Assembly (NCBI GenBank): GCA_049968235.1 | Contig: JBMFRC010000005.1 | Span: 96,001-160,000, forward strand | DNA: 64,000 nt | Direction of reading: 5' to 3' | DNA from: Candidatus Hydrogenedens sp. | GTDB taxonomy: Bacteria; Hydrogenedentota; Hydrogenedentia; Hydrogenedentales; Hydrogenedentaceae | Shown here: one piece after another, positions 40,379 to 42,477 of the stretch | Position numbering within the stretch: position 1 is the stretch's first letter | How the letters are laid out: each line of letters opens with the position of its first letter | Notes under the pieces: generated by a model | What the model saw: only the letters and a program-made list of their open reading frames with translations | Told to the model about the DNA's origin: nothing | Databases searched by the model: none | Made by a program: the position numbers and the translations under genes

Positions 40379-40443
40379 ATTAATAAACAAGAGAGGAGGA
40401 CAAAATATGAAAAGGTTAATACTATATTCATCGGGCTATACTT

Positions 40444-40475
40444 TATCTATCTATCTATCTATCTATCTATCTATC
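40444..40475 (+). repeat. Tetranucleotide microsatellite (TATC)8 within the signal-peptide-coding region of the downstream lipoprotein gene
   Basis: Read directly. Encodes (LSIY)n in the ATG-40407 frame. Confidence 0.9.
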
Positions 40476-40542
40476 ACTTCTTTCCATAAGTATTCTGATT
40501 TCAGGTTGTCCACCCCAAAATCCACCTCAGGAGTTTCCTCAA

Positions 40543-42477
40543 GTGTGTAATTCTTGCTGTGATATAGAAAATTCCCTAAGTACTAATGCTTCTTGTGGTA
40601 TTTTTTGTGAAGAGGGAGAATTAGGCAATATTACAGTATACCCACAAAATTCTTGTTATTTAAAGGGAGAGAAAGTTCATGTATGGTTTGAAGGGACCAA
40701 TCCGGATTATGATTTTTGTAACTGGTTATCCGATCCCCCTGATATTTATTCTGCTAACAATCCTTTACCTTACACAGTGGTTCAGATAAAAGACCAACCC
40801 CAGTCGCTAATTGCGTTTTGCCAGAAAAATAAGGTAACACTTACAGTAGAGTGTGACTACGCTTCTTTTTTAATGCCTGGGAATAGATTAGAAGTTCCAT
40901 CCGGAGCAAATGTGGCATATACCATAGTTAGTGGAGAACAGGTCCCCTGGCGTTATACTATAGAATATCCAGTAGGTTCCTCAATTGAAGTTTCTGCGAT
41001 ACCTGCCGATGGTTATATAATAGACTGGAAGGGGAATAGTGCTTGTGTTGGGGGATGTAAAGGTATTAGATATTATCAAAATAGTATTAATGTTATGATG
41101 GTGGGTAGTGTCTATTTAAAGCCTTGTGCAACCCACATAAACGATTACGATTTTGATTTTCACACAATGACAATTAGTGCGGTTTATGGGGAGGGTATAT
41201 TGTTAAGTGGCGGATATAATTATTCTCAGGGTGGGTGCGATATACCTCTATTTCCATATGCTTCTGCTTTATCTTATGGCAGATTTCGTGTAGCAGTAGT
41301 TCCAGAATCATTTAAATCTCTAGCATACTGGTATTGCTCTACAGAAAATCTTTATTGCCCTTCTGAAGTAGCAGAAGCAGTTTTCCCAATAAATGGAAAT
41401 AGGACACATTCTGCTAACGCAGTTCTGGTTGATAAGGTTTTTTTAATTACTCCTGACCCATTAGGATTAAAGTACATAGACCATGTTCATTATTATGAAA
41501 ATAATATGGGAGGTATAGCAAAAATAATTACTCCACTTTTATATTCACCATCGAGTTTTGACCCATATCCTTTGGGGTGGAATCCTTTACCATACGGTTC
41601 TACCCATCCCAATGAATTCTGGTCGGTAGAAAATCTCTATGAGTGCCCAGAATGCAATGCGGTGGAACTTGAGCCCATTCCCTGTTTAGGTTCTGAATTC
41701 TTATATTGGGAAGTATCCCCTGATGGTGATGTTTGGATACCTGTCCCTCGCAATCCTATAAATCCAAATCTTACCGTATATATGAATTATTTTGGTTCAT
41801 TTGACCCCATCTACTATCCTGGCGATATACATATTCCCAATGGAGGTGTCACCCTCTATGTTCGACCGGTATTCAAATTGTCTTGTGACTTCGTTTGTGG
41901 ATATTGTTCCGGTCCTGATGGCCGTGATGTAATAATTGATATGTATGAAAATCCCGAGGTATTGTTGGGTGTTCAAATGTATCCTGGTCCAGCACCTGAT
42001 TGCAGTAAATATGTAACAAACCAACAGAACCATCCTGCTCACTATGAAAAAGAGGATTTATTACCATTTAATGTATTACAATGTCACCATGGAACTTTAA
42101 ATTATCCGCACGATGGTTGGGCGATAGAGGACGGGATAGCGGAGTGTTATGATGCAGTAGAGCAAGCATATTCGGGAACGATAAATGTAACATCTGTATA
42201 TCGTTGCCCGGTGAAGAATTCATCTGTTAATGGGAGTTTAACAAGCAAACATCTATTGGGCAAAGCATTTGACTTCGACCAACCAAGTTCAGAAGCCAAC
42301 TGGCGTGTAGCTAAAACAGCATATGAATGTAATAATAATAATGAGATATTATTGTATTATTATGAGAACGGTAATAAAAAATCAGTAAGTTTTTATAAAG
42401 TTTCAGATGAAAATGAAAAACCATGGGAAAAATACATCTTCGAACATGGACATGTTGGGATAGTTTCTGGAGATTAA
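40543..42477 (+). CDS. Cys-rich surface lipoprotein with C-terminal LAS/M15-type zinc peptidase-like domain. The biological start is probably ATG 40407, currently out of frame at the (TATC)8 repeat (phase-variable, OFF configuration).
   Basis: Lipobox 'ILISGC' is in frame just upstream (40492-40509) with no in-frame start between the stop at 40417 and GTG 40543. A strong SD/ATG at 40407 encodes 'MKRLILYSSGY...' but lies in the 0 frame. The C-terminal motifs 'SVYRCPVKNSSVNGSLTSKHLLGKAFDFD' ... 'EHGHVG' fit the M15/LAS zinc-ligand pattern. Confidence 0.6.
   Translation: MCNSCCDIENSLSTNASCGIFCEEGELGNITVYPQNSCYLKGEKVHVWFEGTNPDYDFCNWLSDPPDIYSANNPLPYTVVQIKDQPQSLIAFCQKNKVTLTVECDYASFLMPGNRLEVPSGANVAYTIVSGEQVPWRYTIEYPVGSSIEVSAIPADGYIIDWKGNSACVGGCKGIRYYQNSINVMMVGSVYLKPCATHINDYDFDFHTMTISAVYGEGILLSGGYNYSQGGCDIPLFPYASALSYGRFRVAVVPESFKSLAYWYCSTENLYCPSEVAEAVFPINGNRTHSANAVLVDKVFLITPDPLGLKYIDHVHYYENNMGGIAKIITPLLYSPSSFDPYPLGWNPLPYGSTHPNEFWSVENLYECPECNAVELEPIPCLGSEFLYWEVSPDGDVWIPVPRNPINPNLTVYMNYFGSFDPIYYPGDIHIPNGGVTLYVRPVFKLSCDFVCGYCSGPDGRDVIIDMYENPEVLLGVQMYPGPAPDCSKYVTNQQNHPAHYEKEDLLPFNVLQCHHGTLNYPHDGWAIEDGIAECYDAVEQAYSGTINVTSVYRCPVKNSSVNGSLTSKHLLGKAFDFDQPSSEANWRVAKTAYECNNNNEILLYYYENGNKKSVSFYKVSDENEKPWEKYIFEHGHVGIVSGD

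Follow-up and report, generated by a model that had tools for sequence, protein, structure and literature searches.

The DNA analyzed here (the window) is a stretch of 64,000 nucleotides (nt) from an assembly of Candidatus Hydrogenedens sp. (GenBank GCA_049968235.1, contig JBMFRC010000005.1, positions 96,001 to 160,000 of the forward strand). It holds a gene for a predicted lipoprotein with a C-terminal zinc peptidase domain, and the part of the gene that encodes the signal peptide contains eight copies of the tetranucleotide TATC. A preliminary description of the locus had proposed that this repeat makes the lipoprotein phase variable and that the gene is currently switched off. Our analysis of the locus and of its relatives makes this proposal probable. 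All features of the locus lie on the plus strand, and coordinates are those of the window.

The gene opens with a Shine-Dalgarno sequence, AGGAGG at 40394–40399, followed after 7 nt by an ATG at 40407, which is the near-ideal arrangement that had been described. Starting 37 nt past this ATG, Tandem Repeats Finder places a (TATC)8 tract at 40444–40475, at the same coordinates as before and with 100% perfect units. It is the sole tetranucleotide array of at least four units in the window, and no perfect tetranucleotide repeat of at least four units occurred in 50 mononucleotide shuffles of the window. The unit is not a multiple of three, and it sits in the 5′ coding region.

The reading frames around the repeat are also as described. 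The frame of the ATG at 40407 translates as MKRLILYSSGYTLSIYLSIYLSITSFHK... and runs for 47 codons to a TAA at 40548–40550. The product of the OFF state (40407–40550) would start with the n-region of a signal peptide, pass through the repeat, and come to a dead end. The remainder of the protein is encoded in the +1 frame, which is open from a stop at 40417 to 42477. This frame contains the lipobox ILISGC (40492–40509), whose cysteine codon (40507–40509) would encode the first mature residue if the protein is lipidated, and the first ATG, GTG, or TTG in it is the GTG at 40543. One number has to be corrected: counted from the lipobox cysteine, the mature protein has 656 amino acids (aa), and the 644 aa given earlier are the length of the open reading frame (ORF) from the GTG at 40543.

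Since the unit is 4 nt long, the lipobox and the 656-aa ORF shift into or out of the frame of the ATG at 40407 whenever a unit is gained or lost. In silico, unit counts of 4, 7, 10, and 13 join the ATG to the lipobox frame and yield a precursor of 684–696 aa; every other unit count leads to a stop after 20–51 codons. The expectation that a gain of two units, to 10, would restore the frame is borne out by this simulation. The ON lengths (4, 7, 10, and 13 units) are alike in all three lineages with a TATC tract (lineages A, B, and D, introduced below). Furthermore, (TATC)n contains no stop in any sense frame, and all three frames read Y-L-S-I. Hence, the tract can be tolerated in the hydrophobic core of the signal peptide at several lengths.

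Repeat Number in Related Genomes

We fetched the DNA around every reachable homologue of the gene and counted the TATC units at each locus (loci are numbered L001 to L021). An exact look-up of the flanking 518-aa protein returned only L013, and scans of genomes and metagenomes contributed only four further loci. The gene-bearing loci belong to four lineages. In lineage A, the species of the window, both the window and L001 (GCA_049969095.1) carry 8 units and are OFF; L013 (GCA_049971155.1) carries 7 units and is ON. Lineage B (72% aa identity) is represented by ERZ6864144 (L005, the same as L009), whose 6 units leave it OFF, in the other frame. Lineage C (74%), found in three Logan runs (L002–L004), has a single unit followed by (TC)6 and is ON. 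Lineage D (45–47%) is of the Candidatus H. terephthalaticus type and comes in both states: 4 units, ON, at six loci from six data sets, which comprise metagenomes and two single-cell genomes (L006, L007, L008, L010, L012, and L018), and 5 units, OFF, at L011 (the same as L016), L014, L015, and L017, from at least three separate assemblies. Lineage D2, with about 90% nucleotide identity to lineage D, has 4 units and is ON (L019, ERZ27247220). The comparison of repeat numbers across relatives that the preliminary description had called for thus gives 7 and 8 units in this species, 4 and 5 in the Candidatus H. terephthalaticus type, and 6 in a third lineage.

Almost identical sequences can carry either an ON or an OFF allele. 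The loss of one unit from the window's allele had been predicted to create a lipoprotein precursor of the form MKRLILYSSGYTLSIYLSIYLSLLSISILISGC-PPQ..., and exactly this allele exists at L013. Its full-length protein (P0005, MGC9054264.1, 688 aa) is headed by the ATG equivalent to 40407. In 4,031 aligned columns L013 and the window show no mismatch at all, and the only difference is one 4-nt gap, a TATC unit. L001, which shares the 8 units of the window, differs from it by 13 mismatches and two single-base indels in 5.8 kb. The same is seen in lineage D, where L018 (4 units) and L015 (5 units) are separated by 7 mismatches and a single TATC gap in 2,829 columns. L015 and L006 differ by 32 mismatches plus three indels over 6.35 kb; all of these indels fall in T runs or in the TATC tract. 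The flanks of the repeat are identical among the Candidatus H. terephthalaticus-type genomes with 4 or 5 units. These near-identical ON and OFF genomes show that the repeat changes while almost nothing else in the locus does. An in-frame start elsewhere in the gene, raised earlier as a possible objection, did not turn up: the in-frame orthologues share the upstream ATG, the signal peptide, and the lipobox.

Over longer evolutionary distances the repeat stays where it is. It is present at the signal-peptide site in all four gene-bearing lineages, down to 45% protein identity. In the alignment the TATC tract remains perfect and in the same place, and the neighboring codons of the signal peptide have diverged and changed in length. 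Lineage C has reduced TATC to one unit and expanded the neighboring pyrimidine flank to (TC)6, in frame; the growth of this second repeat means that a repeat persists at the site. At the level of the genotype, the locus has what defines a contingency locus.

Selection on the Reading Frame

The ratio of nonsynonymous to synonymous substitution rates (dN/dS, Nei-Gojobori method) of the mature ORF is 0.22–0.28 between lineages, and it is 0.25 for a pair in which both members are OFF (the window and L005). No OFF allele that we examined carries a second lesion in its ORF of more than 640 codons. These substitution patterns indicate that the mature ORF is under purifying selection, including between two OFF lineages. 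The low dN/dS together with the retention of the repeat makes it unlikely that the OFF alleles are decaying pseudogenes.

The Predicted Lipoprotein and Its Peptidase Domain

The mature ORF (40507–42477) encodes 656 aa with 27 cysteines, a beta-rich N-terminal part, and a predicted zinc peptidase at the C-terminus. By a rule-based check, the precursor made from an ON allele begins with a basic n-region (MKR), continues with a 29-residue uncharged and moderately hydrophobic stretch (mean Kyte-Doolittle value 1.5), and reaches ISGC. The lipobox fits the pattern [LVI][ASTVI][GAS]C and is kept in all orthologues as ISGC or VSGC. The ON product is thus predicted to be a bacterial lipoprotein precursor.

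The C-terminal domain (42109–42459) is a match to Peptidase_M15_3, a family of LAS-type zinc peptidases (PF08291, 35.9 bits against a cut-off of 23.2, E = 8.6e-9), and the C-terminal ~120 residues also match the PHROG endolysin family 894 (E = 4e-8). It contains the zinc motif SKHLLGKAFD at 42244–42273 (SxHxxGxAxD, H-x6-D) and an HGH (HxH) motif at 42445–42453. The histidine and the aspartate of the first motif and one C-terminal histidine are invariant in seven aligned sequences. Searched by sequence, the peptidase domain alone had no match in the PDB; a profile of the seven domain sequences aligns the motif weakly (E = 0.07) to the zinc D-Ala-D-Ala carboxypeptidase 1LBU.

The N-terminal part of ~515 aa belongs to a very narrow family, since phmmer matched it to only 8 proteins among 1.84 billion representatives. 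Its distant relatives are surface proteins with InlB B-repeats (Flg_new_2) and other M15_3 proteins, and the relation is weak. A prophage origin was considered and rejected, there being no relative among the viral contigs of IMG/VR. When the proteins of the operon were scanned against PHROG and PADLOC, nothing emerged beyond the endolysin-like peptidase domain, and there was no match to a defense system.

The Probable Operon and Its Putative Promoter

The lipoprotein gene starts 28 nt past one gene and ends 25 nt before another, and both neighbors encode proteins with signal peptides. The first gene (38822–40378) encodes a secreted 518-aa protein, an all-alpha solenoid according to its AlphaFold2 model, which is all helical (predicted local distance difference test score, pLDDT, 83.5). 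This protein has no Pfam, NCBIfam, or PHROG match, and a Foldseek search with the model returned only generic matches to ARM, HEAT, and TPR alpha-solenoids (E ≥ 0.008, template modeling score ≤ 0.26). The third gene (42503–43771) encodes a secreted, coiled-coil-rich protein of 422 aa, which evolves very fast; we refer to it as the partner.

Upstream of the first gene lies a putative sigma-70-type promoter (38751–38779), made up of TTGACA (38751–38756), a 17-nt spacer, and TATAAT (38774–38779). Judged by consensus matching, it agrees with the consensus at 12 of 12 positions, is the best-scoring site of the region, and lies 43 nt before the ATG at 38822. Every lineage has kept both the TTGACA and the −10 hexamer. 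Of the 17 bases of the spacer, 11 form a T homopolymer (38762–38772), which lies wholly within the spacer. A T tract is found at the same place in all four lineages, and its length varies from T9 to T14, with spacers of 14–18 nt.

In lineage A, the window (OFF) and L013 (ON) both have T11 and a 17-nt spacer, and L020, which is from the same metagenome-assembled genome (MAG) as L001 and OFF, has T10 and 16 nt. The OFF allele of lineage B has T9 and 15 nt, and the ON allele of lineage C has T14 and 18 nt. In lineage D, the ON strain has T12 with a 16-nt spacer and the OFF strain T10 with a 14-nt spacer; lineage D2, which is ON, has T12 and 16 nt. Some of these differences separate very close relatives. 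L020 and the window, 99.6% identical over 4,871 columns, are set apart by a single indel, the T tract (T10 vs. T11), and the lineage D strains with T10 and T12 are 99.4% identical. The length-variable T spacer is therefore a possible second, transcriptional switch; its layout is the classical one of transcriptional phase variation.

A T10 run elsewhere in the window (15123–15132) also lies in a promoter-like site, upstream of an ORF for a small, cysteine-rich membrane protein (15111–15533).

A Variable Tip and Silent Cassettes

The C-terminal end of the peptidase domain (42298–42474) is hypervariable. This tip comprises the last ~55 residues, between the zinc motif and the final HxH, and it varies much more than the body of the protein. 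The lineage A and C proteins are 78% identical in the body and 26% in the tip; for lineages B and C the values are 74% and 16%. Even between P0004 and P0009, whose bodies are 99% identical, the tips share only 45%.

Downstream, lineages B, C, D, and D2 contain orphan C-termini of M15 peptidases. They are truncated at the 5′ end, encode 84–129 aa, and have neither the start of the domain nor a signal peptide (L002 6443–6742, L005 6308–6562, L006 6288–6677, L015 6186–6575, and L019 6389–6718). The window itself contains no such cassette. The tips of expressed genes resemble orphans of other lineages: the tip of the main gene of lineage A is 67% identical to the lineage B orphan, that of lineage B is 75% identical to the lineage C orphan, and that of lineage C is 66% identical to the lineage D orphan at L006. 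At L018 the tip of the main gene is 100% identical to the orphan of L015.

L018 is a natural recombinant, an L015-like locus that has lost 1,515 bp by a deletion between both copies of a repeat of 117 bp (2709–2825 in L018; 4649–4765 and 6280–6396 in L015). The deletion joins the lipoprotein gene to the orphan tip, which creates a protein with a new C-terminus (P0009, 681 aa), and it drops the first partner gene. Taken together, these sequence comparisons indicate that the tip is exchanged with silent downstream cassettes in related genomes.

The partner is homologous in all lineages, with homologues at L002, L005, L006, L015, L019, and L021. It is only 28–45% identical there, compared with 74–78% for the bodies of the lipoproteins, and the two partner paralogues of L015 are 41% identical. 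This fast divergence would fit a partner that is immunity-like or co-varies. Every expressed gene has a tip type of its own, and a partner gene is lacking from some of the orphan cassettes. By analogy, the pattern of tips and cassettes resembles polymorphic toxin and immunity loci with orphan modules, or variation of the pilE/pilS type.

Is the Repeat a Switch?

We are fairly sure that the TATC tract is a repeat-driven on/off switch of the predicted peptidase lipoprotein and that the window holds an OFF allele. A number of observations weigh against this interpretation or against parts of it. All alleles are assembly consensus sequences. With 4–8 units, the tracts are shorter than those at classical Haemophilus loci, and the rate of switching may therefore be low, above all at 4–5 units. 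In the lineage B OFF allele (P0003 at L005) the zinc motif reads TSKPLLGKAFD, with a proline in place of the first zinc-ligand histidine. The orphan cassette downstream in the same lineage retains this histidine, and the substitution could reflect the onset of decay, an error in sequencing, or a variant without catalytic function. In one related lineage (L021 458–3114; JGI 3300025691, Ga0208826_1000842) the first and third operon genes are adjacent and there is no lipoprotein gene, which suggests that the gene is dispensable; the promoter there has a short, interrupted T run (T7). Both the missing gene and the proline are as compatible with gene loss as with switching, and in some cases OFF may mark the beginning of gene loss. 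For the lipoprotein itself, the AlphaFold2 model built from a four-sequence alignment has a pLDDT of 36.8 and is too poor to use. Finally, as regards the promoter, the only other long T run of the window, the T10 run at 15123–15132, is within the promoter-like TTGATA-18-TATAAT, so T-rich spacers may be normal for promoters in this organism and not a switch.

One could argue from these points that the repeat is a non-adaptive mutational hotspot in a gene that is being lost, and that the OFF alleles are young pseudogenes of a dispensable gene. Besides L021 and the altered zinc ligand of lineage B, the short promoter spacers in OFF strains of two lineages (15 nt in B and 14 nt in D) would be in line with this. 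We nevertheless consider it unlikely. Four lineages, down to 45% protein identity, have a repeat at this one site, and another repeat has grown where the TATC tract was lost; no OFF allele has acquired a second ORF lesion, and the dN/dS between OFF lineages is about 0.25; and ON and OFF alleles sit on backgrounds only 0–7 mismatches apart. It is very improbable that the window's count is an artefact of sequencing or assembly and that the gene is in truth intact with 7 (or 10) units. Repeats are error-prone in assembly and the consensus of a MAG can hide or distort length variants, but two MAGs of the species that are 13 single-nucleotide polymorphisms apart both have 8 units, the 5-unit OFF allele and the 4-unit ON allele of lineage D each recur in independent data, and a tract of 32 nt is well within a short read.

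The two remaining explanations accept the repeat count and dispute its consequence. According to the public annotation, the product of the OFF allele starts at the GTG at 40543–40545 and is a 644-aa protein that begins with MCNSCC (P0001); our 644-aa ORF is identical to NCBI entries annotated as 'MAG: D-Ala-D-Ala carboxypeptidase family metallohydrolase [Candidatus Hydrogenedens sp.]'. If this were the real product, it would lack a signal peptide, and the ATG and the repeat would be irrelevant. The choice of the NCBI pipeline and an SD-like (Shine-Dalgarno-like) AGGAG at 40529–40533, 9 nt upstream, speak for such a start. However, all in-frame orthologues begin at the upstream ATG, the AGGAG belongs to the conserved codons PQEF/L in a segment that is absent from lineage D, and gene finders choose a different internal start in that lineage. 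In addition, a protein with 27 cysteines and a peptidoglycan peptidase domain would be expected outside the cytoplasm. We regard the GTG start as extremely improbable. The chance that ribosomes shift frame on the repeat, so that 8-unit alleles yield the full-length lipoprotein after all, is practically negligible. We list it only because the tract is stop-free in every sense frame, and we found no support for it. Programmed frameshifting was rejected because the OFF alleles of different lineages would require opposite shifts; we saw no slippery heptamer or stimulatory structure, although no search aimed at them was made, Rfam has no match in 38300–44900, and to our knowledge tetranucleotide repeats do not serve as recoding sites.

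How the Switch Would Work

If the repeat is a switch, then the locus would work as follows. The lipoprotein gene is probably the second of three co-transcribed genes for secreted proteins. Within it, the (LSIY)n tract would form part of the hydrophobic core of the lipoprotein signal peptide. Slippage would be the mutational process that changes the number of units, and it should be reversible. With 4, 7, or 10 units the gene would be ON, and with the 8 units of the window it would be OFF and yield a dead-end peptide of 47 aa. The ON product would be exported and lipidated at the cysteine encoded at 40507, so that the cell envelope would gain a beta-domain region rich in cysteine and, at the C-terminus of the protein, a LAS-type zinc peptidase for peptidoglycan. 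Upstream, the length of the poly-T spacer probably tunes transcription of the whole operon.

A more ambitious interpretation is that the operon is kept variable at three levels: by the poly-T spacer, by the tetranucleotide frame switch, and by exchange of the tip with silent cassettes that are shared across species. We hold this only tentatively and would not bet on it. If true, the locus would show a combination that is the hallmark of surface-variation systems in pathogens, and the selecting agent would have to be phage, predators, or bacterial competitors in sludge and not an immune system. In a specific version, the lipoprotein may be a surface-displayed weapon that cleaves peptidoglycan and the protein encoded downstream its immunity partner, which would make the operon a phase-variable polymorphic toxin system.

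Comparison With Known Systems

Contingency loci driven by repeats are textbook knowledge for host-adapted pathogens. In Haemophilus influenzae, well-known examples are lic1 with CAAT and hgp with CCAA repeats; Haemophilus tracts are usually much longer, and there are many loci per genome. Our locus resembles these in that a gene for a surface structure carries perfect repeats of a tetranucleotide in its 5′ coding region. Unlike in H. influenzae, there is only one such tract in 64 kb. Repeat number differs between strains at the tetranucleotide loci of H. influenzae too, and an excess of repeats has been characterized as a feature of "predominantly host-adapted organisms" (PMC2651432). The organism of the window is not one of these.

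In its architecture, the locus is similar to the opa genes of Neisseria, in which slipped-strand mispairing of CTCTT pentamer repeats in the region coding for the leader peptide switches an envelope protein (PMC3960869). In both cases the length of the unit is not a multiple of three, and the repeat, situated within the sequence for the signal peptide, encodes part of the hydrophobic core. Our locus differs in that the unit is a TATC tetramer, the tracts are shorter, and the gene, present in a single copy, encodes a predicted lipoprotein that has a peptidase domain and not a beta-barrel adhesin. It also differs in its host, which is an uncultured bacterium from anaerobic sludge and not a human pathogen. 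In oipA of Helicobacter pylori the ON or OFF state is read from the repeat count in genomes, with ON at 6 or 9 units (PMC4225565). We read the state in the same way, and the in-frame (TC)6 of lineage C occupies the same site. Unlike oipA, our main tract is a tetranucleotide, and the protein family and the ecology are different.

For the promoter, the obvious comparison is with homopolymers in the spacers of porA (poly-G) and opc (poly-C) in Neisseria meningitidis and vlp (poly-A) in Mycoplasma hyorhinis. As in those cases, a homopolymer between −35 and −10 sets the spacer, and its length differs among close relatives. Unlike there, T-rich spacers may be common in this organism, and the promoter is a putative one.

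Systems that swap C-terminal modules include the polymorphic toxin loci of contact-dependent inhibition (CDI) and Rhs, with their orphan toxin-tip and immunity modules, and the antigenic variation of pilE/pilS. Across its lineages, our locus shares with them a conserved body with a hypervariable C-terminal tip, 5′-truncated silent tips downstream, and a short shared segment (117 bp) that mediates recombination. A fast-evolving secreted partner follows the gene, and one lineage keeps the partner without the main gene. Unlike in CDI and Rhs, what varies is a stretch of ~55 residues at the end of a zinc peptidase domain and not a separate toxin domain.

Hydrogenedentota is a candidate phylum known from genomes only, from anaerobic bioreactors and sediments (PMC6121073; PMC11406978), and is predicted to be diderm (PMC11406978). 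Every Hydrogenedentes genome available before 2018 had been recovered from engineered systems with anaerobic sludge (PMC6121073). Our literature searches found no paper that links Hydrogenedentes or Hydrogenedentota to phase variation, which agrees with the earlier statement that this gene family had not been reported as phase variable. What is new is not the mechanism, which is textbook knowledge, but its occurrence in this gene family, phylum, and habitat. In free-living communities, too, selection apparently favors the stochastic switching of envelope proteins, with phage or interbacterial antagonism as candidate causes.

There is also a lesson for annotation. For OFF alleles, gene finders place the start inside the gene (at MCNS... 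in lineages A and B and at V/MHYPL... in lineage D), and the results are filed as ordinary, cytoplasmic-looking proteins of the "D-Ala-D-Ala carboxypeptidase family". Comparing strains in metagenome assemblies can expose such switches.

Genomic Setting

As seen at L020, the operon follows a gene for the large subunit of RNA polymerase and a SurA-like gene and precedes eno. Being flanked by core genes, it is not part of any obvious mobile element. The G+C content of the operon (38822–43771) is 34.4%, compared with 38.4% for the window.

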